Counted from the first letter of the stretch, positions 9,339 to 40,911 are shown. The stretch is 64,000 nt of DNA from a virus (IMGVR_UViG_3300032321_001270:141189-205188), one strand, 5' to 3'. Notes: generated by a model not told the origin, from the letters alone. Made by a program: numbers and translations.

Positions 9339-11258
9339 TTGTGGTTCATGGTTAAACCTAATAAAGCAATTAAAGCGCTTGATATGCCCTCCGCGGGCGT
9401 ACAAACGCTTATACAAGAATTAATCTCAATCGACCCAACGGACGTGAAAGCTGTTCACGAGCGTGCGGTTGTTTTGCAGCATCTTGCAAACAAACATGCG
9501 TTTCCGTCGCTTGAACCCATTCTTCCGTTAGTCTTAAACCTTAATGGACGTCCGTACAGCCTACAGAACCATTTTCCGTTTGCCCCCCTATTCAGACTAC
9601 TCACCCCTAAAAATCAGGTGTGGTGTACAGGGCGGCAGGTATCAAAATCGACCAGCCTAGCAGCGCACGGAGTTGTAGTTGCCAACTCTATCCCGTTTTT
9701 CAAAACGTTATTTATCACGCCGCTCTATGAGCAGATTCGGCGTTTCTCGAACAACTATGTGCGCCCGTTTATTGACCAGTCGCCGGTGAAAGCGCAGTGG
9801 AGTGGTACGTCAACTGAAAACTCTGTGTTGCAGCGTTCGTTCAAGAACAATTCAATGATGTTGTTCAGTTTTGCTTTGTTAGACGCTGACAGAATCCGCG
9901 GTGTTTCCGCGGATCGTGTGTGTATTGACGAAGTGCAGGATATGGATCCAGATCACGTACCGATCATCCAAGAGACAATGTCTTACTCGCGCTGGGGGAC
10001 TAGTTATTACACGGGTACTCCAAAGACGCTCGATAACTTAATTTACGGTTTGTATAAACGATCCTCACAGGCCGAGTGGTTCATTCCGTGTCATTCTTGT
10101 AAACACTGGAATATACCAGCGCTTGAATATGACTTAAACGCAATGATTGGCCCATACAGCGATCACATCAGCGAGAAGTATCCGGGCACCGTATGCGCAA
10201 AATGTCAAAAGCCCGTAAGCCCACGACATGGTCGCTGGGTGCACAGATATCCCGAACGCCGCTGGCAGTTTGCCGGGTATCACGTACCGCAGATGATTCT
10301 GCCACTTCATTTCTCCGACCCTGAAAAGTGGTCTACGCTCTTGTTGAAACGAGAAGGCTTTGGGAACATGACCCAAGCCCAGTTTTACAACGAAGTTATG
10401 GGAGAAAGTGTTGATACCGGCCAGAAGCTCATCAGCGAAACTGATTTGAAAGCTGCGTGCGTACTAGACTGGGAAAACAAGAAAGAACCAGAACCCAAAT
10501 GCTTCGCAAATCTGTCGCATTACAAACACCGCATTTTAGCGGTCGACTGGGGCGGTGGCGGAGAAGCCGGTATTAGTTTCACCGTGCTGTCTGTGCTGGG
10601 ATTCCGGCCCGATGGAACAATCGATGTGCTATGGGCCAAACGGTTGCTCATTGGTGGCGACCACTTGGCTGAAGCCGTTGAATGTATGCGCTGGTCTAAC
10701 TTGTTTAATTGCGATTTTGTCGCTCATGATTACACCGGTGCAGGCACGGTCCGTGAGACGGTCATGGTGCAGGCAGGGTTTAATCTTGACCGAGTACTTG
10801 CGATGCGGCTCGTCCGTTCCGCGTCGCAAGATTTGATGGTGTATAAACCACCAACGGAAATCAATCACCGCGCACACTACAGCCTTGATAAGACGCGGTC
10901 GTTGCTGTACACGTGTCAGGCTATCAAACTAAAGCAGATCCGGTTCTTCCAGTATGACTGGTCGTCGCAGGACTCGCCGGGTTTGATATCAGATTTCTTA
11001 GCGTTGGTAGAAGAAAAAGCCGAATCCCGATTGGGCGGCGATATTTATACCATCACTAGAAACACACTATTGACTGACGACTTTGCGCAGGCTGTCAACT
11101 TGGGGTGCGCGGCGTTGTGGCACGTAAACAACGCGTGGCCAAACTTCGCCGAGATTGCCGGCGTTGCTCGACTAAGCGCGCGCGCCGTACAAGCCGAGAC
11201 GCCGATGGACGACGACTGGGCTGACGACGCAATCGGCAACAACTATTTTGGTTATTGA
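9339..11258 (+). CDS. terL: Terminase large subunit (lambda GpA-like, with Zn-ribbon insertion)
   Basis: GRQVSKST Walker A variant, RVCIDEVQD Walker B, GTPKT coupling motif, CHSC..CAKC Zn ribbon, ILAVDWG and DDFAQA nuclease acidic residues; true start may be a downstream ATG. Confidence 0.88.
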   Translation: MWFMVKPNKAIKALDMPSAGVQTLIQELISIDPTDVKAVHERAVVLQHLANKHAFPSLEPILPLVLNLNGRPYSLQNHFPFAPLFRLLTPKNQVWCTGRQVSKSTSLAAHGVVVANSIPFFKTLFITPLYEQIRRFSNNYVRPFIDQSPVKAQWSGTSTENSVLQRSFKNNSMMLFSFALLDADRIRGVSADRVCIDEVQDMDPDHVPIIQETMSYSRWGTSYYTGTPKTLDNLIYGLYKRSSQAEWFIPCHSCKHWNIPALEYDLNAMIGPYSDHISEKYPGTVCAKCQKPVSPRHGRWVHRYPERRWQFAGYHVPQMILPLHFSDPEKWSTLLLKREGFGNMTQAQFYNEVMGESVDTGQKLISETDLKAACVLDWENKKEPEPKCFANLSHYKHRILAVDWGGGGEAGISFTVLSVLGFRPDGTIDVLWAKRLLIGGDHLAEAVECMRWSNLFNCDFVAHDYTGAGTVRETVMVQAGFNLDRVLAMRLVRSASQDLMVYKPPTEINHRAHYSLDKTRSLLYTCQAIKLKQIRFFQYDWSSQDSPGLISDFLALVEEKAESRLGGDIYTITRNTLLTDDFAQAVNLGCAALWHVNNAWPNFAEIAGVARLSARAVQAETPMDDDWADDAIGNNYFGY

Positions 11259-21887: not shown

Positions 21888-22190
21888 CTAGAACGTGAGC
21901 TGTACAGTTTGCCCGCCAGCGTTCACATAGACCACGCGAATTTTACTGGCGTCAAGTAACGATTTGAGAAGTGTCTTTTTCTCGGAACTCATTCCGGCAA
22001 GGCACGATTTAATTTGCGCCATCGCACTTCGTTGCTTTTCTTGTTTTTTACGGGCACATGCGCCACACCCGCCAGCCTCAGTGCGGAACAAATCTTTTTT
22101 GTTGAACAGGCAGGGAATGCTTTGCGCGTATTCCGGGTTGTTCATCATTGAGATAATTGTACTGTCTTCAAGTACTACCATGTCGCGCAT
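21888..22190 (-). CDS. Small CxxC protein, possible fibre assembly chaperone
   Basis: GGCGACA motif; last gene of the structural operon; similar pattern to 23004..23372. Confidence 0.6.
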   Translation of the reverse strand: MRDMVVLEDSTIISMMNNPEYAQSIPCLFNKKDLFRTEAGGCGACARKKQEKQRSAMAQIKSCLAGMSSEKKTLLKSLLDASKIRVVYVNAGGQTVQLTF

Positions 22191-22197
22191 AATAACC

Positions 22198-22725
22198 TCA
22201 CGGTGAAACTGGCGCAGGACCGATCCATACCGCGCCGCCGGGCAGCAGGTGGTCTGCCGTGTCTAGCGTGCTCTTAAGCCGCTGAACATCCTCGACAACG
22301 TTTTCAATAAATTCTTTAACTTCGGATCGCGACCTGAGCAGCACGTCTACGTAATTCAACCGGAACCACGCCGGACGGTCATTTGGAATCGGATCGTCTT
22401 CGGGATACTCTTCCAGATCCGTCGGCGAACAGACGTGGTCAAATGCGCCTACGCGGGCTTCGGCGCCCGGCTTGAGGGGCAGCAGTTGATAGGCGAAGAT
22501 TTTATCGGACATGTCTACGGGATCGCTCGCTGTAATGCGCACCCGAATGCCGTCTGTCGAATGGAAGTTGTAACGACTCACGCTCCATGTCAGTTTTACA
22601 CGGCGACTGCTGGTAGACGGCGGCGGAGGATTTAACTCCGGCGTATAAAAATTGAGTCCCAGCGTATCCGGCAAATTGATAATTGGGTCAAGTGGGTCTG
22701 GTTCGCAACTTGAGCAGTTTGACAT
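22198..22725 (-). CDS. Hypothetical virion-associated protein
   Basis: MSNCSSCEPD N-terminus; in structural operon. Confidence 0.65.
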   Translation of the reverse strand: MSNCSSCEPDPLDPIINLPDTLGLNFYTPELNPPPPSTSSRRVKLTWSVSRYNFHSTDGIRVRITASDPVDMSDKIFAYQLLPLKPGAEARVGAFDHVCSPTDLEEYPEDDPIPNDRPAWFRLNYVDVLLRSRSEVKEFIENVVEDVQRLKSTLDTADHLLPGGAVWIGPAPVSP

Positions 22726-22728
22726 GAC

Positions 22729-23007
22729 TTATCCTTGTAGAGGCAAGACGCGCGCAGTGATGTTTACAGGCCCCGGGGTTGTCGAACGCACATAGGCCAG
22801 CGCCAAACCCTCGTCGTCTGTGATCCCCGGTTGTGTGATTTGTACGGTGTTGACGTCCGCTATGATTTCAGCCTGTCGCCCTGCTACCGGCCGATCCCAA
22901 GGATCTCGTAGTCTGATTTTGATGACAGCGGCGTGCGTACCGTCGGCCAACACATGCGGTTTTGCGCCGTGCAAAAGTTTTGAACGTTCTGGGCTGACGC
23001 AACTCAT
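22729..23007 (-). CDS. Single Ig-like (Big_1-like) domain protein
   Basis: IKIRLRDPWDRPVAG....TDDEG.A.A.VRST.PG.V.ITA pattern. Confidence 0.65.
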   Translation of the reverse strand: MSCVSPERSKLLHGAKPHVLADGTHAAVIKIRLRDPWDRPVAGRQAEIIADVNTVQITQPGITDDEGLALAYVRSTTPGPVNITARVLPLQG

Positions 23008-23372
23008 GGAAACGTGTGCCTCTGGGGCGCGGAGCCGTCTGGGGGCGAGTAATATATTGTAACGCCAGTCGTTTCAATGTTAGGCGTTTTGGCTACAAAT
23101 TGAATAAATTGCCGCATTGTTTCTTGGTCGTTTTCTTTGGCGTGCAGCAGTGCTTCGATAAATGCCGTCATGCACGGAGAAAGAACATTGTTGTCGGCGC
23201 GGCATCGGCAACCGCGTTCGCTGGCTGATTTGTCGTAGGCGGCGCGACAGGCTTCAAACTGTGGTTGAAGATTTGCTAGTCCGGGAACAGCGTCAAAAAA
23301 CGGCTGCTGTTGTGCAAACTGCATAATGTTATCGCGGCTGATTGAAATCATGCGTGTAATACGCTGCGTCAT
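23004..23372 (-). CDS. Small CxC protein, paralog-like to 21888..22190
   Basis: GCRC plus a further Cys; matching N- and C-terminal patterns; GAGGA RBS. Confidence 0.6.
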   Translation of the reverse strand: MTQRITRMISISRDNIMQFAQQQPFFDAVPGLANLQPQFEACRAAYDKSASERGCRCRADNNVLSPCMTAFIEALLHAKENDQETMRQFIQFVAKTPNIETTGVTIYYSPPDGSAPQRHTFP

Positions 23373-23425
23373 AGATAGTCCTCGCGTAAGTGCGATCGCA
23401 TTCTAGCCGTGTATTAAAAACAACG

Positions 23426-24328
23426 CTACGCTAACGCCGCCGCTTTTATGGCGGCTCGTAGTGTCGCGTTAGTTTGAATTGCGGCAATAAGCTGCGCGAT
23501 AGTCAGTTCACCTTGCGGACCTGTGGGGCCGGTTGGCCCTACGTTGCCGCACGGGCCTGTAGCGCCCGTATGACCGACACCTGACGCGCCTGTTGCGCCG
23601 TAGGGTCCGGTAGGTCCAGCTGGTCCGCGCGGACCTGTGGCGCCACGCGCACCTGTAGATCCTGTATCGCCTTTTGAGCCTCTGGAGCCCGCCGGCCCAG
23701 ATGGTCCTTGCGGCCCCTGTCCGCCGACCGAGCCGGCAACGCCTTGCGGCCCCATTAAACCCTGCGGGCCAATTAAACCTTGTAGCCCCTGTGCGCCCTG
23801 CAGTCCGCGGTCTCCTTTCGGGCCGGTGGCTCCGCGCGGCCCTGTGGCCCCTGTAGCCCCGTTAACGCCCGTAATACCTCTGGGCCCTGTCGGGCCAGTC
23901 GCGCCTTTTGGGCCCGTTATACCGTTCGCGCCGGCCTTGCCTTGCGGCCCGGTAGCCCCCGTCGCGCCTTTGACCCCGGTTGCGCCGGTGGCTCCTTTTA
24001 AACCTGTTGCGCCGGTAGCCCCGGCGACACCTGTAGCGCCTGTCGCGCCTACCGGCCCCGTCGCGCCTTTCGCTCCAGTAGCACCTGTTTTTCCTTGTGG
24101 ACCGCTAACACCAGTGGCGCCTTTAGGGCCAGTCATGCCTACATTGCCCTGCGCGCCTTGCGGTCCGCGGGCGCCAGCTGGCCCGGCAGGACCTTGCGGG
24201 CCGTCATTTCCTTGTGGGCCTTGTGGGCCAGCTGGACAGACGCCACAGCCGCCGCCGCTGTCGGCCATTGTGATGCCGTCGTACGGCACCATCTCGACTG
24301 GCGCGTCGTTATTTAATGGGTCGGTCAT
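23426..24328 (-). CDS. Collagen-like fibre protein
   Basis: About 80 Gly-X-Y triplets, N-terminal CGVC, C-terminal helix. Confidence 0.9.
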
Positions 24329-24334
24329 GGTGGT

Positions 24335-27300
24335 TTAGTTATTTAAAACGGCGCGGACAGCGTTACGCAGGTTCGTGTTTGTATTCAATTGCGCGATAAA
24401 CTCGTTTAAAAACGCGCCCGAGCGGACTAACTCGGCAATATTGATGTTAATGTTTCCGTTAATCGCCGACGTGGTTGCTGTAATTGTGCCGCTACCCACG
24501 GCAGATGGTGTAAATGTAATTGTACCACCGGCGGGTATTACTCCGGTTGCACCTTGCGGACCCGCTGCGCCTGTAGCGCCAACATTGCCACACGGCCCTG
24601 TCGCACCTTCTGGACCCGTCGCTCCGGCGGTACCAGTGGCCCCCTGCGGGCCAGTAACGCCGCGTGGGCCTGCAACACCTGTTGCGCCGGCAACGCCTGT
24701 GGCGCCCTGTAAACCGCGTTGGCCGGTTGTTCCCGCCGGTCCTTGTGGTCCCGTAGCGCCTTGAATACCTGTTGCGCCGATTTGACCGTTTTGACCGTTT
24801 TGACCGCTTGGCCCAGTTGCTCCGCGCGGGCCAGTAGCACCAGCCACGCCGGTTGAGCCTGTATCGCCCTTTGGGCCGGTGGCGCCGCGCAAACCCTGCG
24901 CGCCTGTAACACCACGCGGTCCGGTTGGGCCAACCGGGCCTGTAATACCGCGCGGGCCGGTAGCGCCAGCTGCGCCCGTAGCACCAGCAGAACCAGCAGC
25001 GCCAGCAGCACCCGCAGCGCCAGCTGGGCCAGTTACGCCGGTCGCACCACGAGCACCTGATACTCCAGCGGCTCCAGCAGGGCCGACTGGACCAGTTGAG
25101 CCTGTATCGCCCTTGGGGCCCACAGGACCTATTGGGCCGGTTACACCGCGGGGACCGATCGGGCCTGTTACGCCTTTTTCGCCTTTGTCGCCCTTCTGGC
25201 CTTTCGCGCCAGTGGGTCCGGTATTGCCTGTATCGCCTTTGGCGCCGGCGGGACCTTGCGGGCCAGATTGACCGGGATCGCCTGTGCAACCAGTCGGACC
25301 CATCTCGCCTTGAGGCCCGATAATACTTGCACCCGGAAGACCCTGCGGCCCGATGTCGCCGTTCTCGCCTTTCTCGCCTTTCTCGCCTTTCTCGCCTTTC
25401 TCGCCTCTGTCGCCCTGATTGCCTTGCATGCCGCCAAAGCCTGCAGGGCCGCGCGGGCCTGCAGGACCAGCCGGACCTTGTGGCCCGCCGGCGCCGGCGG
25501 GACCTTGCGGACCCTGTACGCCCGGTTCACCTTTTTCGCCTTGCGGCCCCTGTTGACCGACGCCGTCTTCACCCGGCTCACCCGGTTCTCCTTTGTCTCC
25601 CTTGTCGCCCTTCTCGCATGATCCGCTTCCACCGCCGCCGCTGCCACTGCCGCTGCCACTGCTCGTTGCAGGGCACTCGGTTGTGTTTAAGTCAATGTTG
25701 ATGGTGAGCTGACCTGTTTCCGTATCAACTTCAATGCTGCCGGTTCCGACACCGCTGGGTTTGATATTAACCGTGCCGCCCGAGATACCTGTCGGGATGT
25801 ATGCATATCCTTGCACTTCATATTTGCACGTAGTTGTCTCAACGATGTCGACATGTATTTCCGGTGTGCCGCCGCCGTACGGTCGCATCTCCAAACTGGC
25901 GCCCGTAAACTCTGGTACGCACGGTACGGGTACGCCGATAGTTAACTCAATGTCGTACGTACATACGCCCGGCTCGTCACCGCTACTGCCGCCTACCTGT
26001 GACGGCGTGACGTAACCGTAACCATACGGATACTCAGATTCGACAACATCAATGTTGACCTCTATCTGCGGGCACGGTTGCGGCGGGCATTTAGGGATCC
26101 AGATGTACGGCGTTATTTTGAATTCGCATAGATCGAGCTGTTCAACAAGAATCTCTGCGCGCGGTTCTATGCCGCAACCAGTAAGAGCAATTCCCTCGCC
26201 GCCTTGAATTTTCGGGATGCACGGCTTCGGGATGCCGATATAAAACGGTATGACTACGTCGCAGTAGTAACCCTCGTCAAAATTGAATATCGGGGAACTG
26301 GCGAACGCATACGGATCTGCCTGTGGTGGCAGAACGCGCATATCAACCATCATGGAGACAGTCGTGCACGGCGGCTTTGGAATCTGAATATCGATTTCAA
26401 AGTCAATCTCGTAGCAGCAAACCGGCGGATCATTTGTGCCGCGCTTTTCGTCGTATTCCGGGCATTTTTGAATTTCAAACTTGAACTTAGGTGGCACGTC
26501 ATAGCCAACCTGATGTTCAAGGTTTTTGACGCGTACTGTCGTGCACGGCGGCCGAGGTTGCGGAACGTCAACGTGGATATCAAATAGAAATGTGCATGAC
26601 CCCGGATCATTACACGTAGCCGGGGTTGTAGTTGCAATAAGATTGAAAAAACTCGGCGTATTGTTGAGCCGACCAGCCGGGCCATCTTTGTAATGGCTGT
26701 TGACGGTCATGAACTTCATCAACGTCGGGCATTTTGGTCGCGGAATCGGAATAACTAGATCTAGGTAGACATTGAAATCGCATGTCTCTGGTTGATCGCA
26801 GCCCGAGGCCGGCGTCACTTCCGTGACAATTTCAAATTTAGACGACCCGCTTACACACGTAGTGCCGGTGTAACCAACTTTCTGGGTAAACGATTTTTTT
26901 GTAATTTTTATGCATGGTGGCGGCGGAATTGGCACCACAATTTCAAGATCGATATCAAAATCACACTGGTCTGGTGTGTTGCAATTACCGGGCGTAATAG
27001 TCGAGGTAATTTCAAACTTGTTCGATTTGCCCTGCACGCATGTCGAGTCAGCGTAACCACTCGTGACCTCAAACGAATTAACGTTGATATTTGGGCACGC
27101 TGGTTTTGGAATCGGAATTGAAAGCGTCAGATCAAAATCAAATTCGCACTGATCGGGCGTATTGCACCCACCCGGGATTGAGCGCGATGTGATGGTGAAA
27201 GATGAGTCACCGCCCGCGCCGCACGTCGGGTCGTCATAGCCGACCGCAAGCTTGAACGTCGGCGAATTAAGAATTGGGCATGGCGTTCGCGGGATCGGTA

Positions 27301-28876
27301 CAACAATTTCAAGATCAACATTAAACTCACACTGTCCCGGGTCGTCGCACGAGCCCGCGGTGTGGCTTGTTGTAATCTCAAATTTTGAACCACCTTGCGC
27401 GCACGTTTGATCGGCGTAACCTGTTGTGATTTTAAATGTTGGCGAATTGATGATTGGGCATGGCGGACGCGGAATTGGAATATTGATCTCTAACTCAACG
27501 TCAAATTCGCACTGGTCGGGTGTCTTGCAGTCGCCGGGCGTGTGCTTAGGCGTGATAGTGAACTTTGAATCAGGCTGCGTGCAGTTCTGATCGTTGTAGC
27601 CGGTTTTTACAGTCAGTGCAGGTGAGTTGATGATCGGGCATGGCGGCCGTGGAATTGGGATATTGATTTCAAGATTAACGTCAAACTCGCACTGATCCGG
27701 CGTGTTGCAGTCGCCGGCCGTATGTTTTGTTGTGATCGTGAAAATCGAATCTGGCGGCACACAGGTTTGATCGTCAAAGCCGGTGTTCACTACAAACGTT
27801 GGCGAGTTGATGATCGGGCAGGGCGGTCGCGGAATTGGGATGACGATTTCTAAGTCAAAATTAAATTCGCACTGGTCGGCGTTATTGCAGTCACCGGGTA
27901 TAACGCGCGTTGTGATTTCAAACCGGTTCTCGCCCGTGATGCACGACGAGTCGTCATAACCGGAGGTAACTTTTAATACTGGCGGGTTGAGCGTCGGACA
28001 CGGCGGGCGCGGTATTGGAATGGCAATCTGCAGGTCAACGTCAAATTCACATCGCGCGGGCGTATTGCAGTCGCCCGGTATTTCGCGGCTGGTGATATTG
28101 AAGTAGTTCTGTTTGCCCAACAAGCAATCGCCGTCCGAGTAACCACTGTCGACGGTAAAGTTTGTCAGGTTAATAAGCGGGCACGGCGGCCGAGGAATTG
28201 GCACCGCAATTTCAAGCTCTATTTCAAACCGGCACTGATCAGCGGTGTCGCAATCGCCGGCCGTGATTACCGGCGTTAACGTGAATTTGTTTTGCGCGTC
28301 CGTCATGCACGAGGAATCGGCATACCCAGAATTGACGGCAAAATTAGTAATGACGATTTGCGGGCACGGCGGTTTCGGCACCGGGATCTTTAGATCCAAA
28401 TCAATGACAAATTCGCAGCTGTCTGGCGTGGTACAATCGCCGGGCGTGATAATTGGTGTGATGCGTATTTCGCTGGTTTGCGTGACGCAATCCTGATAAC
28501 CGACTTCCAAACCAAACTCGCCGGCGGTAAGCGTGCTGCACGGTATGCGCGGAACAGGAATGTTCAGGTCGAGCGTGACTTCGTATTTACACGGATCGAT
28601 ATCTGTTTGTTCAATCTTGAGCTCGTTTTTAGCGGAGTCGCACGCGCCTGTTCCGCTGGTATCTACAAAGTTGACGCCCAGCGTCGTCACTGCCGAGAAG
28701 TCTGGGCAGCGAATGCCCACTTCGGTCGGCGGCTCGCGCGGGATGATCGGCGCCTGACAGCCGTAGATCGGCGGCGGCAGCGGCGCAATCTCGCACACCG
28801 ACGAAATAAAATCGAAATCCGCTTTTGGTACGGGTTCGATCGGGCACTGCGAGTCTTTGAAAAGATTTTCAGCCAT
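24335..28876 (-). CDS. Giant fibre protein: about 17 Cys-rich ~60-aa repeats plus ~115-120-triplet collagen domain
   Basis: Repeat PRPPCP..GYxDxxC..GDCxxPxQCEF; Gly-X-Y region about 24540-25612. Confidence 0.85.
25362..25406. repeat. Perfect 9-bp tandem repeat (TTCTCGCCT)x5 encoding GEK triplets
   Basis: Read directly from sequence. Confidence 0.9.
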
Positions 28877-28877
28877 G

Positions 28878-29792
28878 TTATGTGCAGTTTACCTGCGCGT
28901 TTGGTTTCTTCTGCACCTTGATTGTTCCGTCGTCAATCAAAATGTTAATTCCAGCGCCGCCAATGATATTGATATTTGTACCGCCAACACCGTTTACTGT
29001 CGTGATGAGTTCGTCACAGGCCGGACCACCGCTAAAAAATTTGCTGTCTGCCGCGAGCGGTTCTGCCGGGTACAGCGGTATTTCGCTTCCGTGCGCACAC
29101 AATTCTGCGCTCGTTGACCCGGCTCCAGCGCCTTTAGTCGCGCTGACACTCAACTCATTGGCGCGGTCTGTTTGTGTAATTAAGCAGTTATAACCTTCTT
29201 TGAGCCGAATGTCGCCCTTTATGCAGCGCGCATTTAGGATGATTGGCCGGTTATCGTTCGTGCCGGTGACGCCGCAAGCTGGCACACGAACGCGGTCGTA
29301 ATTTCCAACACTGATTGAACGCAAATATGCCTTGTTTAAATTTTGAATAAGCGCCGGTTCAACGCGGTAATCATTGTCGGTAAAAGACCACGTGCCGGAT
29401 GAAAAAACATCACGAAGCGCGCCGAGCGGGCCGGTAGCAATAAACCCAGACCAAATTGGTTCTTCGGCGCATTGTTTGCTGTTAAGCGGCGCGGACTCGG
29501 CATACTCGTTTAACCACTCGTTAGATTCTTGCTCGCGAAAAAATGACAGTGTGGCACTACTGGCATTTGTTTTAAACACAAACTCAAACACCGGCACCGT
29601 ATCAACCACAACGCTGTTAATTGCCGACAACCAAACGGTGTGCTGCGTCTCGTCAAAATACGCGTCGAGACCCATTACAAAACCGGCGTCAACAATTACG
29701 CTCGTTGGCAGCGGGGGCAATGTGGCTGGTTTGTCGTAAACGAACGGATACGCGCGGTATTCGTTATCGTTGTAAAATCCGGGACGAGGCAT
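28878..29792 (-). CDS. Putative baseplate/fibre-associated protein, paralog 5
   Basis: FYNDNEYRAYPF N-terminus; TTVNGVGG..INI C-terminal motif. Confidence 0.6.
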   Translation of the reverse strand: MPRPGFYNDNEYRAYPFVYDKPATLPPLPTSVIVDAGFVMGLDAYFDETQHTVWLSAINSVVVDTVPVFEFVFKTNASSATLSFFREQESNEWLNEYAESAPLNSKQCAEEPIWSGFIATGPLGALRDVFSSGTWSFTDNDYRVEPALIQNLNKAYLRSISVGNYDRVRVPACGVTGTNDNRPIILNARCIKGDIRLKEGYNCLITQTDRANELSVSATKGAGAGSTSAELCAHGSEIPLYPAEPLAADSKFFSGGPACDELITTVNGVGGTNINIIGGAGINILIDDGTIKVQKKPNAQVNCT

Positions 29793-30571
29793 TACACAAC
29801 GCTCCTACCAACGGTATCGACGACAATTGTCTCGCCGTCAACATAAATTCGCAACACGGCGTCGTTGACCAGTTGATTTGTAGCAGTAAACGTAAAACTG
29901 CCGTATTCGTCGGGGCCGCAGCCGTTGATGGTTTTTAAATAAGGTTTGGACGGAAAATTCTCGCCTTGCGGTTCACACAGGAATCTTTTAAATAGCGGGA
30001 CGCCGATAATGTCAAATCGAATCACATGCGGGCCGTCTTGGCGCAGCACAACGCCTTGATCGCCAACCAGCCAGATGTCGCCTGTTAAGAACTGCTTTTT
30101 TTCTGTTTGGATAGCGCGCACACCGGGTTCATTCGCCGGGATCACTACCGTAGATACAAACTCTGTTTCGCCCTGCGTAAACGGATAGGCGCCAATTGCC
30201 CACGCAGAAAAACGCGCAAGCGCTATTGGAGTTGATAGCAACATTCCGGCCGGGCGACCATAGATATCTGAAAACAACAGTATCCCGTCCGCCGGTGGCG
30301 ACAGCGGATTGTAACGCGAAAAAATTCGGCTTGTTAGATCAGAATCGCCAACCGTGATCGTGACTTGTTGCGCCGTTACGTCTATCGACGAGATATACGC
30401 GCGAGTACCACCACCGATCGCAAAGAATGACGCGTCAATAAAAGTGTCTGGCGCAATTTGAATTGTTTCAGCTGCCGCGCTTTGCAGCGTGGCTGTATCT
30501 GCAAACGGGTAACGTGACGTCAACTGTTCGTCGCGAAACTCTGGAAATAAAATACGCGCGTCGGTCATCAC
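29792..30571 (-). CDS. Putative baseplate/fibre-associated protein, paralog 4
   Basis: FRDEQLTSRYPF; KTINGCGPDEYG. Confidence 0.6.
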   Translation of the reverse strand: MMTDARILFPEFRDEQLTSRYPFADTATLQSAAAETIQIAPDTFIDASFFAIGGGTRAYISSIDVTAQQVTITVGDSDLTSRIFSRYNPLSPPADGILLFSDIYGRPAGMLLSTPIALARFSAWAIGAYPFTQGETEFVSTVVIPANEPGVRAIQTEKKQFLTGDIWLVGDQGVVLRQDGPHVIRFDIIGVPLFKRFLCEPQGENFPSKPYLKTINGCGPDEYGSFTFTATNQLVNDAVLRIYVDGETIVVDTVGRSVV

Positions 30572-32301
30572 TGCACCACAAATTTGTTAAAAAACGTATA
30601 AGACTGGTTTGTAAATAAACCAACAGAACCCGTAACCTCGCCGGGATTGGTGATGCTTGTGAAACCAGTTGCAGCGTGCGTGCCGTCAAGTTCTGATACA
30701 GAAAAATTTACAGTAAGCGCATTACCGTTGAGATTTAAACTTGTATACAGGCGATACCACGTGTTTACTTTTGCGTTGTAGTTTACCGACAGCTCTTCGG
30801 TAAATATGTCGTTGTTGTAACGCAGCACACGGATTTTTGCTCGGGTAGCATCAACAAGTACAACAAGGTACCGGGTAACGACTTGGTTTAATTCAAGTGT
30901 CTGCAAATAATTCAGCACAACGCCGCCGTTACGCGCGATGCCGTTCGTACCGATTTTGAATTCTGTCATGATTGTGCGACTTAGCGCCCAATCTGTTGCG
31001 CAGTTTTTCAGTGCCGCTACGTTCACTCCGCCTATGCCGGCGGAGGCGTATGTGCCGTGATTAGTCAGCGCGCTTCCGATATTTGGATTGAATTCTGCAA
31101 TCGAGCAGTTTCCACAAACCGGCGGCGCTTTTGTTTCGGCGGCTGAGAACACCCCTGTTTTTGTTTCAAAGTAAGCGCTTGGCTGGCACGAGCTAAAGTC
31201 GGCACACAGCGGTATTGGAAGACACGCGTAATCGCGGTCTGTCAATGTTTCGTCAACAATAAGATCTATGGCTGTTGTCGGGTCCGGCCAGCAATATTCA
31301 TCGATAACAATATCGGTTTCGTTGTAATTGCTGCCTTCCCAGCGATATACCTTGTTTGTGTCAAACGCCAGATATAATTTATTTAGTTCGCCGGCTGGCG
31401 GAAAAGCTGCAACATTAGCAAACGTATAAATGTTTTCGCCGGTGAGCGTGCAACACAAATCTTTGAACTCTTGCGGTTTTTTTGGTGTATTGGCAGCGCA
31501 CACTGACGTCAGGCCAACATCTGTCACGATGTCGGCGCCACCGCAACCAGCGAAATTGATATTTGTAAAACCATCAAATACGATGTTGATGTTTCCGGCA
31601 CAATCTGGCGCAACACCGTTGATAGTTTCAATTGGTGTTTTTGGGCAGGTACCGCTTTCTGGTCGTTGGCCGCAGGGACCAATAAATGTCTGTAATGGGT
31701 TGTATTCGCCCGTGATTAACGCCGCGTCTAATCGAAATACAACAGCCGGGTAATCGACGCCCTCGTATTGAATAGTTTCGTATTTAGCGGTAACGGGCGA
31801 AGATCCTATTAGATTGACGACGCCCTGTAGCGCTGTACCAAGATTTATTTTGCCGATAGTAGGGATCGGCAGTGGTCGGTAGGGGCGTGCGTTTCTAGTC
31901 TGAATTAGTGTCTGCGTTGGCCGACTATATCTACCGGCAAACGCTGTATCTACGCCGGGGCCAAAAGCAACCCAGCCAGAAACTCCCGGCACAAGTGGCG
32001 TCACACTGTAATTAACATAAGGCGAAGCTGGTTGCGGTACAGACACCGCGCAGATTGTTTGCCCCTGCGTGTCAGCCGGTGATTCAACGACACCAAAAAC
32101 GACTGTAACAATTCCAGCAGATACAGTTAAACCCTGCACGTATAAATACTGACCGAGCGGCCGCGGAAACCTAATATGGCAATCAACAAGAATGTCGTCG
32201 CGAATAAATGCGCCGTTGTTGTCGAGACCGCTAGACAGATCGTCAAGCGGGTAGCGCCGCGTTGACTGGAGGTTGTACCAATTCTGGTTGCGTATAGACA
32301 T
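30568..32301 (-). CDS. Putative baseplate/fibre-associated protein, paralog 3, with C-terminal beta-sandwich (lectin-like) domain
   Basis: WYNLQSTRRYPL; ETINGVAPDCAGN; NTWYRL...V....G.VGLF C-terminus. Confidence 0.6.
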   Translation of the reverse strand: MSIRNQNWYNLQSTRRYPLDDLSSGLDNNGAFIRDDILVDCHIRFPRPLGQYLYVQGLTVSAGIVTVVFGVVESPADTQGQTICAVSVPQPASPYVNYSVTPLVPGVSGWVAFGPGVDTAFAGRYSRPTQTLIQTRNARPYRPLPIPTIGKINLGTALQGVVNLIGSSPVTAKYETIQYEGVDYPAVVFRLDAALITGEYNPLQTFIGPCGQRPESGTCPKTPIETINGVAPDCAGNINIVFDGFTNINFAGCGGADIVTDVGLTSVCAANTPKKPQEFKDLCCTLTGENIYTFANVAAFPPAGELNKLYLAFDTNKVYRWEGSNYNETDIVIDEYCWPDPTTAIDLIVDETLTDRDYACLPIPLCADFSSCQPSAYFETKTGVFSAAETKAPPVCGNCSIAEFNPNIGSALTNHGTYASAGIGGVNVAALKNCATDWALSRTIMTEFKIGTNGIARNGGVVLNYLQTLELNQVVTRYLVVLVDATRAKIRVLRYNNDIFTEELSVNYNAKVNTWYRLYTSLNLNGNALTVNFSVSELDGTHAATGFTSITNPGEVTGSVGLFTNQSYTFFNKFVVQ

Positions 32302-32304
32302 GGC

Positions 32305-33912
32305 TCAGCACGGCCCCTCGGTTTTACCGTCAGCATTACAGTGTAACGTCTGCACTGTCTCTGATACGGCCGCAGGTGGTGGAAAACCATCAGCGAGATT
32401 AACGCCGCAATTTGTCAGAATAGGCGAGTTATCGCTTAGGAGAGCTCCGGTTAAAACACCGGTAATTACATAAGGACCGCGGGCTCGTGTTTCAACCGAC
32501 GGCGTTTGCGTGTCATCTAGTTGAGTAAATTTTACGCGAAATTGTACATAAGCAGACGACCCCGGTTTAAGTTGTGGAAATGCTGCTGTGTAGTTGCGCC
32601 CGTCGCTGCTGACCGTGATGCCGATTGCGCCGCCGCGGATGCCGGGCGCGTACATAGCCGTGTGACCGCATTCTAATGACGGCGTCACGTGTACCGGTGT
32701 TTGTTGCCCCGGCAGCGCCACTAAATCACCGGATACGTCCAGAGTTACAGTCAGACGAGACGGATTAACACATGTTTCGCAGGGATTGCACAACATCATT
32801 ACGACGTCCATGTATGCACAACGCTGCGGAACAAGAAACAGCCGTAGCGGACGTTGCACGCTGCATGCGCGCTGGTCAAGCCACCGCGCTATATTGTTTT
32901 CGTGCTCTGTGCGCACTTTGTCCGCCCGCTGGCCAATAAGCCGGTATCTGTAGCTCGTATCGTTCATGTATTTTGCTGTAGCGGCGTAGTCGTTGCAGCT
33001 GCAGCACGGCTCGCAGTCGGCGCCAATCTGCTGATGTGCTGTAGTAGAAGGATTTACCGCATACGGCGGCGATATCCCGACAGACACGGGGCGGCGGGCC
33101 CACAAGCAATCAGTGCCAGAAATTCGAAAATCGCCGTTGTCGCTGCTGAGTCCGTTAATTTTTGTAAGCGGTACACCTACGTTGCCGCCGCAATTTCCAT
33201 ATCGTCCCAAACCGGTACCGGCAACAGCGGTAAAATTTATTTTTGTGTTGTTACGGAAGTTTTTTGTTTCTGCTGTACCGGCCACAATTTCTGTGTTGTA
33301 CCCATTCACAAATTTTATTGATTCGGTATACCGCGGACTGATTGCGTTGCCGTTGCGTACGCGTAGCGTTAACAACCGTTTAGGCATTTTGTAAACAGCG
33401 CGTTCATCTAACCGCGCGTTCGACGGGGCGAGATATTTATCGTATTGCCGTCGCGTGTCATCATCTATTTGTTGGTTGTCGTCGTTTGGCCACGTGGTAT
33501 AGGTAACAAGGCGGCATACAGCGCGCGCAGTCTTCCACTCGTAAATACGGTAATCGGCGCCCCACGCGCTGACGTTAAACAATACGTCCTCGTGATTTGT
33601 GTCAAGAATGACGCGGTTATGGGAATCCACAACAACGATGTCTGCCGCGTGGACTGAAACCGGAAAACCGGGGGCTGGAGTATTCTCAACACATCCGATG
33701 CCGTATAGATATTTAATTCGCAGCGGGTGGGTTGCTTTCGGGGCGCCGGAGTCGTATTCGCCAGCGTCGTCATACGACAGATGTAGGTCAGCGACAAGAT
33801 ATTGAATATCTTCTGACGGCGAGACTAAAGGATAATCTAAGCCGCTTTGCGGTTGCACTACGCCGAGCCCGCTGCGGCCGGATTTTGATGTGGTGTAGTC
33901 GGGGCACGTCAT
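32305..33912 (-). CDS. Putative baseplate/fibre-associated protein, paralog 2
   Basis: SGLDYPL; TKINGLSSDNGD; CEPCCSC followed by a helix. Confidence 0.6.
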   Translation of the reverse strand: MTCPDYTTSKSGRSGLGVVQPQSGLDYPLVSPSEDIQYLVADLHLSYDDAGEYDSGAPKATHPLRIKYLYGIGCVENTPAPGFPVSVHAADIVVVDSHNRVILDTNHEDVLFNVSAWGADYRIYEWKTARAVCRLVTYTTWPNDDNQQIDDDTRRQYDKYLAPSNARLDERAVYKMPKRLLTLRVRNGNAISPRYTESIKFVNGYNTEIVAGTAETKNFRNNTKINFTAVAGTGLGRYGNCGGNVGVPLTKINGLSSDNGDFRISGTDCLWARRPVSVGISPPYAVNPSTTAHQQIGADCEPCCSCNDYAATAKYMNDTSYRYRLIGQRADKVRTEHENNIARWLDQRACSVQRPLRLFLVPQRCAYMDVVMMLCNPCETCVNPSRLTVTLDVSGDLVALPGQQTPVHVTPSLECGHTAMYAPGIRGGAIGITVSSDGRNYTAAFPQLKPGSSAYVQFRVKFTQLDDTQTPSVETRARGPYVITGVLTGALLSDNSPILTNCGVNLADGFPPPAAVSETVQTLHCNADGKTEGPC

Positions 33913-33915
33913 ATG

Positions 33916-34857
33916 TCACCCCGTTGAACAACCAGAGTCGCCGAGCTGGCTACCGAGCACGACGAGGCTCATTTGCGTTACTTCAGATCCAAGTCGCGTG
34001 ATAAAGTTCTGTAGCGTAGTGACGCCGTCGCCAAAGCGATTAATCTGGTCGACGATTGCGTCCAGCTCTGTGCAGCCACAACAAGGTTGCGCACACGTAT
34101 CTGCAAATTTTAATCCGTTACTCATCGGCGTAATCTGAATACAGTCGTCGGGCGCGATAATAAAATTGCCGTCTGAACTGCATACACCGTTGATACACCG
34201 AATACACTCGCCGGTTGTTGGTGTATCGCAGTAACACTCTTCATTCAGATTTGTGTTCGCAATAGCGTCAAAAACAATTTCTGTTTCAGCGCCAAAATTA
34301 GCGGCCGTAATCCGAATGTTGTTTCCGGCGACAAGCGTGACATCGCCGTAAATGGGAGCACTAAGTTCGCTGTTGTTTGAGACGCGCAGTCGGGTTACGG
34401 CCCGCAACATTGGCCGAATAGCGTCTGTCTCTAGCTCGCCGTCTGCGGGTTCAAACTCGTACAACCCCGGCGGAAGTAAATCAACCTCGTCTAGTACGCC
34501 GAGCACGACGCGGCCCACGCAGTCGTCGAAGTCGCCTAGACCGCCGAGCGCGTAAGACCGGTTTGGTTGATAGTTGCTGCGAATAATATTGGCAGCGGCG
34601 ACGTCTACGGTTTGACCGCCAGCGGCATAGCCAACTGTGATATTAAAACCGGTTGGCGCAATCAGTATGCTTTTGATGTAAAAGTTATTTGGCGCAAACG
34701 ACAGGCCAGAGTGGATAGGCAGGTACAAGCCAACAATAAAGCTGTCTGGCAGCCTAATCGTTTTGCTGACGTCTGTTTTTGTGGCGCGCTCTGTCAGCGG
34801 GTATGACCGCTGCGAGTTGTGATTGAGCCACTGTAGATTCCAGTTTCCAATTGGCAT
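33916..34857 (-). CDS. Putative baseplate/fibre-associated protein, paralog 1
   Basis: WLNHNSQRSYPL; CINGVCSSDGN; CAQPCCGC followed by coiled coil. Confidence 0.6.
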   Translation of the reverse strand: MPIGNWNLQWLNHNSQRSYPLTERATKTDVSKTIRLPDSFIVGLYLPIHSGLSFAPNNFYIKSILIAPTGFNITVGYAAGGQTVDVAAANIIRSNYQPNRSYALGGLGDFDDCVGRVVLGVLDEVDLLPPGLYEFEPADGELETDAIRPMLRAVTRLRVSNNSELSAPIYGDVTLVAGNNIRITAANFGAETEIVFDAIANTNLNEECYCDTPTTGECIRCINGVCSSDGNFIIAPDDCIQITPMSNGLKFADTCAQPCCGCTELDAIVDQINRFGDGVTTLQNFITRLGSEVTQMSLVVLGSQLGDSGCSTG

Positions 34858-37465: not shown

Positions 37466-39208
37466 TTATTGACAGGTGCCAGACACCAGCCGAGCAGACG
37501 CGCCAAGATCTTGTACAAGTTCTACGGGTATGGCGTCTCCCAGCGGTTCTGCTCCGGTAAATTTCGAGATGGCCTCAGAAATGGCGTTTTCGGGGATTAT
37601 GTTATCTTTGTCGGCAGTTAACTCGAAAATTACGATCATTGCCGTTTGCGGCGGCAATAATCTACGTAGGTGCCTAATATTGTACAATCCGAGCTGATTT
37701 AACCCTAGGGCGCTCACGGAAATTCTGACGACAAACACGTTATTGCGTAGCACATTTTCTACGAGAAAACGCAATGGGTTAATTGTCTTCGGTAAATGCG
37801 CGGCAGACGGCTCTGTTTCTGCGTTTGCGCGCCTGTCAAACAGGTGGGCTAACGTCCCAATACGGCGTTTTGCGGCGCACGGGTCTTGCGCTTTTCGTGC
37901 CGTCGCGGCAGCAATACCGCGGGCGTGTACTTCGTCAAAAAAGCGTTCGAGGTCGGCGGGGTAGCCGCCAAGTTGAAATTTTACATACGTATACCCGCTT
38001 GGGTGAGCTGTATCAATCTCAAGCGGAACGACCTTGTTTTCGAACACAATATCGCCATAAAAACAAGCCGACAAGAAACCGCTATCGAGGGCAAGGGCGG
38101 CGATATTTTTTCGAACCGGCTGGCACGGCTCCATATTCGGATCGAGCAGCAAGTCGTCGTCGGTTTCGGTGGTGAGATTCTCCCACGCGCTATTGGTCAA
38201 GATATCGTTTGGGGGTGGGCAACAAATAACCGGCTGCGCGTTGTCGCTCCGGGCATAAACGTTACCGACAAAAAACTCGTGAATATCAACGCCGTATATT
38301 AATTGCGTACCAGCGGTGATAACCTGTTCAACTTCAACGCGCGGTACTGCGTTTTCTGTGAAACGGTAAACAGCTTTATCCGTGACTATGAGTAATCCGC
38401 GGGCGTCAGTGTCCACGAACTCCACGGTTTCGACCGGACCTACGCTTACCGGTATACCACAGATAGCCGCCAACGCGCTGTCAAGAATCGCCGCTGTCGC
38501 GCCGCCTTCTACCAACCCAGAGATGATGGCGTTCGTCAAGTCTTTGTAACCTTGACTTGTTCGCAGCTTTACACCTACGGCATACGCAAACTGATTAAAA
38601 ACGTTGTCGTAATCAAACTTGCCGCAGAACGCCCATAGAGTAAGTTCCGTGTCGCCCGGATTGTCTGGCGCGACGCGTTTTGTAAACAGCGTGTTTGCAA
38701 ACGGGTCTTGCGCAAAAACAATTACTTGACGGTCTAGGTCGATCAAGAAATCTGTATTTTTAATCAGCGCGCCAGTTGGAAACGTAATGCGATTAAACAG
38801 TTGGGTTACGTCCGCGAGATTGTCGGGGAGCGGGAACGAAAAAAACCGAGACGCGGGCGCGCGGTCAAAGCTTATCGTGTCATTATTAAAAGTCGTGGTT
38901 GTTTTATCGAATCTGACGCTGCTCGTGCGCAGTGTGTTGCACTCTGATTTTTTGAGCACGACAGGCGATAAAAATTCAGTGTGAAACAGTGGCACATCGT
39001 ACCGACTCATCGACTCCACAGCTTCGATCAAATTTTGATAACTTTGATTGACAAGCTGTGCGGTAGCCAGCGTGTACGAGTGCACCTGATCGACGCCGTC
39101 GTAGAGCTTAGACCAGAAGCTACCTAGCGCCGCGATAAGGTTGCGACTGCGGTCGAGGTCTGAGCCGGGATAGACAAACTCTGGTTTTTTCATTGTTAGC
39201 TCGCCCAA
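37466..39208 (-). CDS. Baseplate wedge protein (gp7/I-like)
   Basis: Follows J-like gene; LGSFW N-terminus, ..LLPPQT..I C-terminus. Confidence 0.5.
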   Translation of the reverse strand: MGELTMKKPEFVYPGSDLDRSRNLIAALGSFWSKLYDGVDQVHSYTLATAQLVNQSYQNLIEAVESMSRYDVPLFHTEFLSPVVLKKSECNTLRTSSVRFDKTTTTFNNDTISFDRAPASRFFSFPLPDNLADVTQLFNRITFPTGALIKNTDFLIDLDRQVIVFAQDPFANTLFTKRVAPDNPGDTELTLWAFCGKFDYDNVFNQFAYAVGVKLRTSQGYKDLTNAIISGLVEGGATAAILDSALAAICGIPVSVGPVETVEFVDTDARGLLIVTDKAVYRFTENAVPRVEVEQVITAGTQLIYGVDIHEFFVGNVYARSDNAQPVICCPPPNDILTNSAWENLTTETDDDLLLDPNMEPCQPVRKNIAALALDSGFLSACFYGDIVFENKVVPLEIDTAHPSGYTYVKFQLGGYPADLERFFDEVHARGIAAATARKAQDPCAAKRRIGTLAHLFDRRANAETEPSAAHLPKTINPLRFLVENVLRNNVFVVRISVSALGLNQLGLYNIRHLRRLLPPQTAMIVIFELTADKDNIIPENAISEAISKFTGAEPLGDAIPVELVQDLGASARLVSGTCQ

Positions 39209-40911
39209 CCGCCTGATACAACGGAAATAGAGATATCTTCCGGTCGTGTTAAAAACGCGGTTGTGCGCCCGGTGACTAAACGCGCAACATCGTCCGGTAT
39301 TTGCAGAATTGTATTGTCTCGAATACGGGCGGTAGTGCCGTCAGGCCGCCGAATCCGACCGAACATGTCAACGCTACCGACGGCTTGACGCCCGCTCAAA
39401 TACCTATGCACTACGTTTGTGATAACAGACGCGTGCAACTGGCCAGAGAACCCAATCGCCCCAATGGCTGTGCTGATGCTTTTTTTGATAGCCTCAAGAT
39501 TTGGCGCGGCTTCGGCAGCTGGCTTGCGGATTTCAAACGAAATCTTTGTAAAACACGGCACCGGCGCTTTAACCAGTATGTCAGTCGCACGCGGTCTCGT
39601 TTCTCGACCCGTCAAGTAGTCCTGCAGTTCGGCGATTAGCGGCATACCTACAGTTGTTACACCGTACAGCTTTTTTGTCTGGCCGGCGACGAGTGTCGGA
39701 TTCGGCTGTATATCGGTATTCACAAAACGAATAACCGCAGTTTGGTATCGCGTGTATGCACTTTCGGGTATGTACATGATGTCAGGCACAAAATCTAACT
39801 CTGAAAAATCGACGTGGCGCGTGTCGAGCAGCACAGAGTAATTCACGGGTTGCGCCACAGTCGGATCGACGACACTGACAACTTCATAAAAACCCGGCGC
39901 GGCTTCGCGGTTGATCGACACCTGCCACACAGTGCCGGTCGTCGTTCCGCCCACCAGCGCGCGTTCAGCGCAGTCGCCCGAAGAGTTTGTTGGCGGCAAA
40001 TATGGTTCGACGTACGTGGCCGTCAACATGTGTTCTTTTTCTTGCGCATACATATTGGTCTGCGCGTAAATATCTATTTTGCCGCCGCCTGATACAGGAA
40101 ACAGCGTGTGTTGGTCGCGCTGCTGCTCAGCATCACCGCAGCCTAGAATCGATAGGTTTTTGATATTAGAAAATGCTGACTGCGTAGTCAGCGCGGCTTC
40201 GTAGCTTTGCCGGCTGCCAATTGTTTTGGCCGCCAGCCCGCTCGCCAACCGTTGTAGGTATTGAGAGTTTGTGGCCGCATCAGAACCTTCGATGAAGTCA
40301 GTGGCGGCGTACGCGGCGGCGACATTATTGATCACGCTATTTGGCGTTAGGTTTACGCCGCGCTTAATGTTCCCAGCTGAGCCAACTGACAGCGCGATCA
40401 CTGTGATTGTTGCGGCGAACGTTCCGTCGCCGACTGGAATCATTTTTCTTTGGTTTGTTTCTGTAGCCTTGTCTGCTGAAGCTGCAGAAAAAACAACAAA
40501 CGAGTTTGTCGGCACAAAAACGACGCCGGCGTCTTCGGCAGCAAACCGTACGGCGCTGGAAATCTCTGTTCGTGTGTCGGAGTTGAAAATGATTGTTAGC
40601 GCGCCTGTTGCTGGCGTACCGTTGTCGCGCGTCAGGTTGAAATTGGACAGAACCTGATCAACCAAGTCGGCGTCAGCGAGTTCCGGGTTTTCGGTTATTT
40701 TGAGCAGGCTTTTGCTCTGCTGCACGCGGTCGATATTTTCTTGAATGGCGGCATTCAACAAGCCGTCAAAATAAAGCACTAGATCGTGAAATACGCCGCG
40801 CGTTAATTCCACTTCTGGGTGACGTTCCGCCATAAGCTGCGACAACGTCGCAACCATTGCTTGCACCTTTTCTGGGTTTAACTGCGTCAGGCTTGAAATT
40901 TCAATTGGCAT
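39196..40911 (-). CDS. Baseplate J-like wedge protein
   Basis: A..G..GN, GSDA.TN.QYL.R, Y.A.L baseplate-J patterns. Confidence 0.75.
   Translation of the reverse strand: MPIEISSLTQLNPEKVQAMVATLSQLMAERHPEVELTRGVFHDLVLYFDGLLNAAIQENIDRVQQSKSLLKITENPELADADLVDQVLSNFNLTRDNGTPATGALTIIFNSDTRTEISSAVRFAAEDAGVVFVPTNSFVVFSAASADKATETNQRKMIPVGDGTFAATITVIALSVGSAGNIKRGVNLTPNSVINNVAAAYAATDFIEGSDAATNSQYLQRLASGLAAKTIGSRQSYEAALTTQSAFSNIKNLSILGCGDAEQQRDQHTLFPVSGGGKIDIYAQTNMYAQEKEHMLTATYVEPYLPPTNSSGDCAERALVGGTTTGTVWQVSINREAAPGFYEVVSVVDPTVAQPVNYSVLLDTRHVDFSELDFVPDIMYIPESAYTRYQTAVIRFVNTDIQPNPTLVAGQTKKLYGVTTVGMPLIAELQDYLTGRETRPRATDILVKAPVPCFTKISFEIRKPAAEAAPNLEAIKKSISTAIGAIGFSGQLHASVITNVVHRYLSGRQAVGSVDMFGRIRRPDGTTARIRDNTILQIPDDVARLVTGRTTAFLTRPEDISISVVSGGWAS

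Follow-up and report, generated by a model that had tools for sequence, protein, structure and literature searches.

A cysteine-rich repeat shaft joined to collagen in a probable tail fibre of an uncultured jumbo phage

Collagen-like phage fibres and disulfide-linked phage tails are known, but separately. In the freshwater cyanophage Pam3, as the cited part of one report describes, disulfide bonds tether twelve fibres to Cys-rich regions of the wedge, and dithiothreitol sets the fibres free (PMC9942802). A siphovirus tail tube crosslinked by inter-ring disulfides is described in a second report, which in the part used here also cites phage Milano, with its disulfide-crosslinked sheath and baseplate, and Q-beta (PMC13576161). 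In the literature searched, we found no description of a cysteine-rich collagen-like phage tail fibre. Here we analyze a candidate, protein P0001, encoded on the minus strand (24335..28876) of a 64,000-nt stretch of the virus record IMGVR_UViG_3300032321_001270. This stretch (bases 141189-205188, hereafter the window) comes from a record of 205,188 bp that is complete according to CheckV, and the source is an uncultured phage of slightly over 200 kb, the "jumbo" size. P0001 joins a shaft of cysteine-rich repeats to a long collagen segment, and the way in which cysteines are kept and lost among its relatives suggests that neighbouring repeats are locked together by overlapping disulfide bonds. 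Coordinates below are window positions unless another locus is named.

By open reading frame (ORF) and translation, P0001 has 1513 amino acids (aa), arranged as an N-terminal domain, a Cys-repeat shaft, a collagen segment and a C-terminal tail, all read from the minus strand. The N-terminal 106 aa (28559..28876) are acidic, contain 6 Cys and include the first degenerate unit; this is presumably the end that attaches to the baseplate. Ten canonical four-Cys repeats of 58-61 aa follow (residues 107-709; 26750..28558), then degenerate repeats and a Gly/Ser linker (residues 710-1089; 25610..26749), with Cys1087 just ahead of the collagen. The collagen segment (residues 1090-1447; 24536..25609; PF01391, E 1e-47) comprises 118 Gly-X-Y triplets. 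The last 66 aa and the stop codon (24335..24535) form a tail with a β segment and an amphipathic helix, presumed to be a trimer-registration domain. Cut at their P-x-P...C anchors, the ten canonical units are flanked by ~7 degenerate ones (residues 34-106 and 710-1090), and a hidden Markov model of the repeat detects 13 units. These counts agree with an earlier note on this DNA, which had described a 1513-aa protein with ~17 repeats, ~10 of them with four Cys, and ~115-120 triplets.

Cysteine makes up 4.4% of P0001 and 5.8% of its repeat region, compared to a mean of 1.5% for the phage proteome. The fraction for P0001 is the highest among this phage's proteins of 300 aa or more, and the enrichment is beyond chance. 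All but two of the 67 Cys lie within residues 1-1090 (65). The unit consensus reads P-I-P-R-P-P-C-P ... G-Y-x-D-x-x-C ... F-x-I-T ... [13 protein letters not shown]-x-D-L-E-I. In strand 3 of the repeat, hydrophobic residues alternate with four acidic ones; the canonical region as a whole has an isoelectric point (pI) of 4.2 and contains 3 His in 603 aa. At the DNA level, only ~2.5 copies can still be discerned as a 180-bp repeat (76% match), from which it follows that the array is old and that its cysteines have been maintained by selection.

A word-indexed homolog search with residues 100-1085 of P0001 returned 67 clusters, every one labelled "hypothetical"; their metagenomic contigs measure up to ~213 kb. 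When 1.84 billion representatives were searched exhaustively with a profile, the repeat turned up in only 75 proteins, all of them unnamed. The family is confined to one lineage of ~200-kb uncultured phages. Its members have 7-26 repeats, which begin at about residue 45-50 or 105-119, and 0-202 collagen triplets; this wide variation in both repeat number and collagen length suggests that fibre length is tuned to the host surface. One collagen-less homolog, P0067, has no close relative in viral contigs. In searches of Pfam, PHROG and NCBIfam with P0001, the collagen part alone was recognised and the repeat had no match. The profile searches proposed in the earlier note thus led to no well-described fibre family, in line with its view of the protein as an undescribed phage appendage that combines a Cys repeat with collagen.

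Conservation of each cysteine was computed over 795 full-length repeat copies, taken from the first 68 proteins. Practically all copies (~100%) have Cys7 and Cys50, 89% have Cys44 and 73% have Cys26, and most of the "missing" Cys26 residues are merely displaced by one or two positions. Exactly four Cys are found in 77% of copies. The cysteines are therefore conserved in homologs, and a lack of such conservation is what the earlier note had named first among grounds for refutation. An AlphaFold2 (AF2) model of three repeats, built from a 103-sequence alignment (predicted local distance difference test score, pLDDT, 81.7), predicts a three-strand meander per unit (strands 14-21, 32-40 and 49-62), the last strand entering the next unit. 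This predicted topology assigns Cys26 to the "top" of a unit and the other three, Cys7, Cys44 and Cys50, to its "bottom", such that four Cys converge at each junction. The hydrophobic face of the repeat may be buried in a three-chain prism.

Given that four Cys meet at each modelled junction, we tested for coupling across junctions, using a larger set of ~950 copies from all family proteins. Presence of Cys26 in repeat n is tightly associated with presence of Cys44 in repeat n+1 ([[718,14],[1,48]]; phi 0.86, odds ratio about 2,460). The analogous tables for Cys26(n) and Cys44(n) of the same repeat ([[787,44],[79,40]]; phi 0.33) and for the reverse neighbour, Cys26(n+1) and Cys44(n) ([[643,33],[103,2]]; phi -0.05), serve as internal controls, having the same phylogenetic structure as the test comparison. 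Pairing of Cys26 with Cys44 within one repeat was considered and is superseded by the cross-junction pairing. The 48 joint losses of Cys26 and Cys44' (primes denote the following repeat) are spread over 41 proteins and at least 12 sequence contexts, as defined by single-linkage clustering at 40% identity.

The exceptions are informative as well. In 14 of the 15 discordant junctions, the zone-B Cys is kept and the Cys44 of the next repeat is missing. Most of these 14 have a substitute pair, made of a Cys immediately before strand 2 and a new Cys59 where strand 3 ends. These two residues share the top of one unit and are strongly coupled to each other (odds ratio 113, p 5e-24). Two copies lack Cys7 and Cys50 together, while their flanking repeats retain both, which points to a Cys7-Cys50 pair within the repeat. 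Wherever Cys26 and Cys44' are both lost, Cys7' and Cys50' stay invariant, as would fit two independent two-residue bonds and not one Cys4 site. On the strength of this covariation, we consider it likely that the cysteines of the repeats form two kinds of disulfide, Cys7-Cys50 and Cys26(n)-Cys44(n+1). The two spans overlap in sequence, and bonds of this kind would therefore form a continuous, interlocked ladder. Under this scheme, 64 of the 65 shaft cysteines of P0001 can be paired; the odd one is Cys1087, just before the collagen.

The same observations bear on a different use of the junction cysteines, namely binding of Zn or Fe at a Cys4 site, which would make the shaft metal-stapled instead of disulfide-stapled. 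Metal ions occur in other phage fibres, such as the iron sites of T4 gp37 and the zinc of gp12, and Cys4 sites can assemble in a reducing cytoplasm. The predicted convergence of four Cys at each junction would suit such a site. However, cysteines are gained and lost strictly in pairs while the other pair stays invariant, and the substitute pairs appear at new positions that suit a bond between two residues. Lost ligands are not replaced by His or Asp, His being nearly absent, and the spacings (x18, x17 and x5) are unlike those of zinc knuckles. These data make metal binding improbable. The earlier note had left the choice open, with a rod that was "disulfide- or metal-stapled"; covariation favours the first of these, and the pairwise loss of cysteines speaks against the second.

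Structural searches with the three-repeat model gave little to compare the predicted fold with. Foldseek against the PDB yielded no usable match (best E 3e-3, template modelling (TM) score at most 0.23), and a Foldseek-independent PDB scan gave Z values of 3.2 or less. Among AFDB clusters, only generic tandem-Ig/adhesin rows appeared (TM at most 0.29), and the BFVD search gave a TM of 0.18.

The collagen segment of P0001 is recognised by Pfam Collagen (PF01391) with 160 bits, against a cut-off of 27.2. Its 118 triplets fall into three runs of 6, 25 and 87. The rise of a collagen triple helix is about 0.29 nm per residue, and hence 354 collagen residues would span about 100 nm by calculation. 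This lends support to the ~100-nm collagen stalk proposed earlier, the triplets being counted and the length extrapolated from them. The segment tends to have a cysteine at each end. In P0001, the GPCG Cys lies near the C-terminal end of the collagen. Among the 42 collagen-bearing homologs, 30 have a Cys no more than 8 residues ahead of the helix and 28 have a GPCG-type Cys within the final 36 residues. These caps are candidate inter-chain knots.

Gene context bears on what kind of structure P0001 may be. The gene is the last of a baseplate module, in which a Baseplate J-like protein (39196..40911, minus strand; PF04865, E 2e-11) and five paralogous baseplate-distal proteins (28878..34857, minus strand) precede the fibre, the latter directly upstream of it. 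The six loci retrieved around fibre homologs all keep this upstream order. The collagen part of P0001 has matches among the PHROG tail-fibre families. Moreover, the homolog P0008 (76% identical; L002:8001-13892) contains a pectate-lyase-like domain (PF12708, residues 1321-1517) with collagen on both sides, a placement reminiscent of tail spikes. The position after the baseplate genes and the domain in P0008 therefore point to a tail fibre.

Alternatively, P0001 could have no role in seeking a receptor and form an appendage of another sort, its Cys shaft directed outward; whiskers, fibres of the neck or head and decorations that bind a matrix are examples. Its C-terminal tip is tiny, and no receptor-binding domain is recognised: in Pfam, PHROG and NCBIfam searches, P0001 showed no domain known to bind or degrade host surfaces. 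Collagen-like proteins are, in addition, known as head or neck fibres of other viruses. Against this stand the location of the gene, which closes the baseplate module directly after Baseplate J and the five distal paralogs, and the tailspike-type domain in its close homolog. Furthermore, the region 3' of the fibre gene is where relatives swap or insert large variable proteins, much like host-range modules. We regard an appendage of another kind as very unlikely.

The five baseplate-distal proteins are encoded by consecutive genes, look paralogous (304, 259, 577, 535 and 313 aa) and belong to no Pfam family. What they have in common is an N-terminal R-x-Y-P-[LF] motif together with a second motif, I-N-G-V..D..G-N. 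Three of the five are enriched in Cys (2.8-3.8%), with clusters such as CxC...CxxC and CxxCCxC. Given this enrichment, oxidative cross-linking of the whole distal tail is plausible.

The reading that we favour, and hold to be moderately probable, is that P0001 is a baseplate-attached trimeric tail fibre with a disulfide-laddered shaft and a collagen helix, formed with no dedicated enzyme. The proximal shaft would consist of ~17 copies of a 60-aa three-stranded β repeat, joined by P-I-P-R-P-P linkers. Each repeat would be closed by its own Cys7-Cys50 bond and each junction bridged from Cys26 of repeat n to Cys44 of repeat n+1, the overlapping bonds giving a continuous ladder of ~32 disulfides per chain. 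Such a ladder should produce a stiff, acidic rod (pI about 4.2). The shaft would lead, through the Gly/Ser linker and the capping Cys, into a collagen triple helix of ~354 residues (~100 nm), closed by the GPCG Cys and by a short C-terminal domain that probably sets the register of the trimer. The disulfides would most likely form without a dedicated enzyme, after the assembled protein meets oxidising conditions, by analogy with what has been inferred for other disulfide-linked phage tails.

Several points weigh against this model or limit it. Covariation is blind to whether a pair forms within or between the chains of a homotrimer. Of the 48 joint losses, 33 occur at the terminal junction and probably represent one inherited event. 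About 12% of copies have three Cys and the Cys count of P0001 is odd, and hence some thiols must be free or engaged in inter-chain links. The C-terminal tip is small (in homologs, the tail after the helix measures 27-79 aa), which bears on the nature of the distal end and on receptor binding. Finally, spontaneous formation of ~100 disulfides per trimer is assumed. If confirmed, the model would bring to light a new fibre fold and a novel means of stiffening a rod at the nanometre scale, which would interest protein engineers. The extent to which environmental phages rely on extracellular oxidative cross-linking would also become apparent, and the model names the precise bonds.

The genes that follow P0001 are likewise on the minus strand. 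P0002 (23426..24328) is a second collagen protein of 300 aa, with ~80 triplets, an N-terminal Cys cap and a PF01391 score of 125.9 bits against the same cut-off; like P0001, it carries a GPCGNVG motif and a terminal amphipathic helix. P0003 (23004..23372; 122 aa) has four invariant Cys (C-x12-C-x-C-x9-C), and P0004 (22729..23007; 92 aa) is a Big_1 Ig-like domain (PF02369; 41 bits, cut-off 34.9; E 2e-10). P0005 (22198..22725; 175 aa) begins M-S-N-C-S-S-C and has a strongly conserved core. P0006 (21888..22190; 100 aa) contains C-G-A-C and, like P0003, four invariant Cys (C-x14-C-x2-C-x17-C). This is the series listed in the earlier note: a second collagen, an Ig-like protein, an MxxCxxC protein and two small Cys proteins. 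The same note called the last two paralog-like, which they are only weakly (BLASTP E 0.42; hhalign probability 30%, with the Cys not aligned).

We compared gene order in six loci around fibre homologs and in 29 viral loci retrieved via P0006. The order is fibre, optional second collagen, P0003-like, Ig, P0005-like and P0006-like. P0002 is present in most related loci and absent from L003, L005, L015, L023, L024 and L035. In seven loci (L003:15150-15947, L029, L030 and L032-L035), Ig and P0005-like sequences are fused in one gene of 265-282 aa, from which it follows that the two proteins probably act together; a role at the fibre is putative. In L005, L015, L023, L024 and L031, the P0005-like protein lacks the N-terminal ~35 residues, and no Ig gene is present.

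The cysteines of these small proteins had led the earlier note to suggest a dedicated folding or redox pathway. In this scenario, the fibre needs a phage-encoded system that acts in the cytoplasm, with P0006 and/or P0003 as thiol oxidases, isomerases or Cys-specific chaperones. There is something to be said for it. Both proteins are restricted to this phage lineage and keep their four invariant Cys, across 37 clusters for P0003 and 93 for P0006, and of 35 distinct related loci (window included), 34 have them after the fibre. A load of ~32 disulfides per chain would be a heavy one for folding. A structural model of P0006 (pLDDT 84.5, predicted TM score (pTM) 0.73), of alpha/beta type, has the CxxC at the N-terminal start of a long basic helix (43-65), an arrangement shared by many redox-active dithiols, and Cys63 at the far end of that helix. 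The 18 residues that separate Cys45 from Cys63 on this one predicted helix argue against a single Cys4 metal site of the zinc-ribbon or treble-clef kind.

Other findings count against such a system. P0003, P0005 and P0006 match no Pfam, PHROG or NCBIfam family and no thioredoxin, DsbA or glutaredoxin profile, and neither P0003 nor P0006 belongs to a recognisable cofactor-binding family or bears such a signature. Searches with the P0006 model gave Foldseek PDB E values of at least 0.95 and VIA Z values of at most 4.1, and AFDB and Atlas returned uncharacterised proteins only; no thioredoxin, DsbA or Erv fold was listed among the matches, although absence is no proof. The only credible fold neighbours are two uncharacterised proteins of ~100 aa (TM 0.56-0.58). 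An ESM Atlas feature search gave nothing for P0005 and P0006; HECT rows for P0003 were at chance level. A match of cytochrome c555 to the P0006 profile (E 0.0017) was rejected, P0006 having no CxxCH motif. As for P0005, just 2 of the 34 loci have the N-terminal CxxC; the majority show a single Cys or "CC", and in 12 there is none. Its single conserved Cys lies in FDHVCSP.

Synteny adds little in favour of the redox system, since these genomes are syntenic throughout and adjacency is therefore weak evidence. The fibre and the small genes lie apart in four loci, with 2.5-7.5 kb of other genes between them, and in L038, the most distant locus, none of the small genes is found within 10 kb downstream of the collagen-less fibre P0067. 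Elsewhere in the genome, a search revealed no DsbA; the sole thioredoxin-fold gene (G000 52407-52652; PF00085, E 1.7e-10) lies ~110 kb from the fibre and outside the window. A search of the genome for Erv/ALR was uninformative, as the controls gave no response either. The idea that virion disulfides call for an oxidase of the phage's own, a premise of the earlier note, is itself weakened by published cases such as Pam3 (PMC9942802), and in the portions cited here neither that report nor PMC13576161 describes a dedicated oxidase for its disulfide-linked phage tails.

Taken together, these data make a phage-encoded redox or folding system unlikely. Less likely still is the full combination of an interlocked-disulfide rod with a new-fold thiol oxidase or chaperone, supplied by the phage as P0006 and perhaps P0003, that makes ~100 disulfides per fibre in the bacterial cytoplasm. 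Were it true, it would be the first dedicated virion-disulfide pathway in phage, analogous to the systems of poxviruses and giant viruses. That private pathway accounted for much of the original interest in the locus, and it is currently unsupported. Under the enzyme-free reading, P0003 and P0006, like the Ig protein and P0005, would be conserved lineage-specific genes with a putative role at the fibre.

Some relatives differ around the fibre in other respects. The four loci with intervening DNA (L020:2575-8780, L025:3917-8775, L026:6044-8773 and L027:1165-8787) carry an extra module in the gap that separates the fibre gene from the small ones. Among its products are hyper-Cys proteins, for instance one of 494 aa with 55 Cys and one of 830 aa with 65; several of these have poly-Ser tracts. 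The module also encodes a CxxC...CxxC protein of ~178 aa with a weak DUF5535 match and a family-9 glycosyltransferase of ~635 aa (PF01075, E 7e-12). This module may be a glycosylated second fibre system. In L038 (14771-22118), downstream of P0067 comes a protein of 876 aa that has 70 Cys and ~22-aa repeats of the C-x-C-x-C-P type. Also following it are a 55-aa ORF with a match to Mtd_N (the tropism determinant of Bordetella phage, N-terminal domain) and a protein of 1339 aa; the host-range module of this locus is entirely different.

In the window at large, a long minus-strand late operon includes a baseplate protein, Baseplate J and a sigma-70 region-3-like protein. The last of these (41931-42785, minus strand), 284 aa long, combines sigma-70 region 3 with a helix-turn-helix at the C-terminus, and its gene lies within the baseplate/tail module. 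In related phages, a CsrA homolog (PF02599) lies a few kb downstream of the cassette (L002:18932-19126; L003:18957-19181). The large terminase is of the gpA type (9339-11258), and its identity to the terminases of catalogued phages does not exceed 29%.

How does P0001 compare with described systems? The PHROG collagen-like tail-fibre families 6320, 5073, 819 and 8745 likewise have long Gly-X-Y stretches and a late, baseplate-adjacent gene, and they match the P0001 collagen strongly. However, they match only from about residue 1070, and the 1090-aa Cys-repeat shaft has no counterpart in them. Cnidarian minicollagens have ~12-16 triplets, flanked by polyproline and a six-Cys domain of the CxxxC type. 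They resemble P0001 in having a collagen helix capped by Cys at both ends, but the 118 triplets of P0001 make its collagen ~8 times longer, and the organism and cellular context differ. P0001 has no i/i+4 Cys pair and no polyproline-plus-CxxxC domain, and so falls outside the definition of a minicollagen. The analogy drawn in the earlier note is thus superficial.

Two families of rods invite comparison with the shaft. Sushi/CCP modules (PF00084) are β modules of ~60 aa with four invariant Cys, strung into rods, and hence are similar to the repeats in module size, cysteine number and arrangement. Their disulfides (1-3, 2-4) stay within the module, whereas in P0001 one bond per unit would cross to the next repeat and interlock the two. 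P0001 has no match to PF00084, Collagen being its sole Pfam family at E <=0.01. The G5-E repeats of staphylococcal SasG/Aap (PDB 4fum, 5dbl, 8deo) form flat three-stranded sheets that continue from repeat to repeat in a long rod. They are the top rows of the Foldseek-independent scan, with Z values of 2.5-3.2 that are below the reliable level; the row with the best Z, 3.2, has a root-mean-square deviation of 5.7 A over 109 residues. G5-E repeats have no disulfides, and Aap uses Zn between molecules. The likeness is a suggestive analogy for a rod made of one continuous sheet and is no evidence of relationship.

Pam3 and Milano, as far as the cited portions of their accounts go, share with this phage the theme of virion tail parts held by disulfides and of Cys-rich baseplate-distal proteins, the paralogs upstream of P0001 being Cys-enriched here. 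No sequence relationship was found between P0001 and the tail parts of either phage, and no ladder of this kind turned up in the libraries and papers searched. In those two phages, the same portions indicate a handful of bonds between subunits, as compared to the ~32 bonds per chain that would run along the shaft of P0001. What is new here, as read from sequence, is an undescribed repeat shaft in which intra-repeat and inter-repeat disulfides would overlap.

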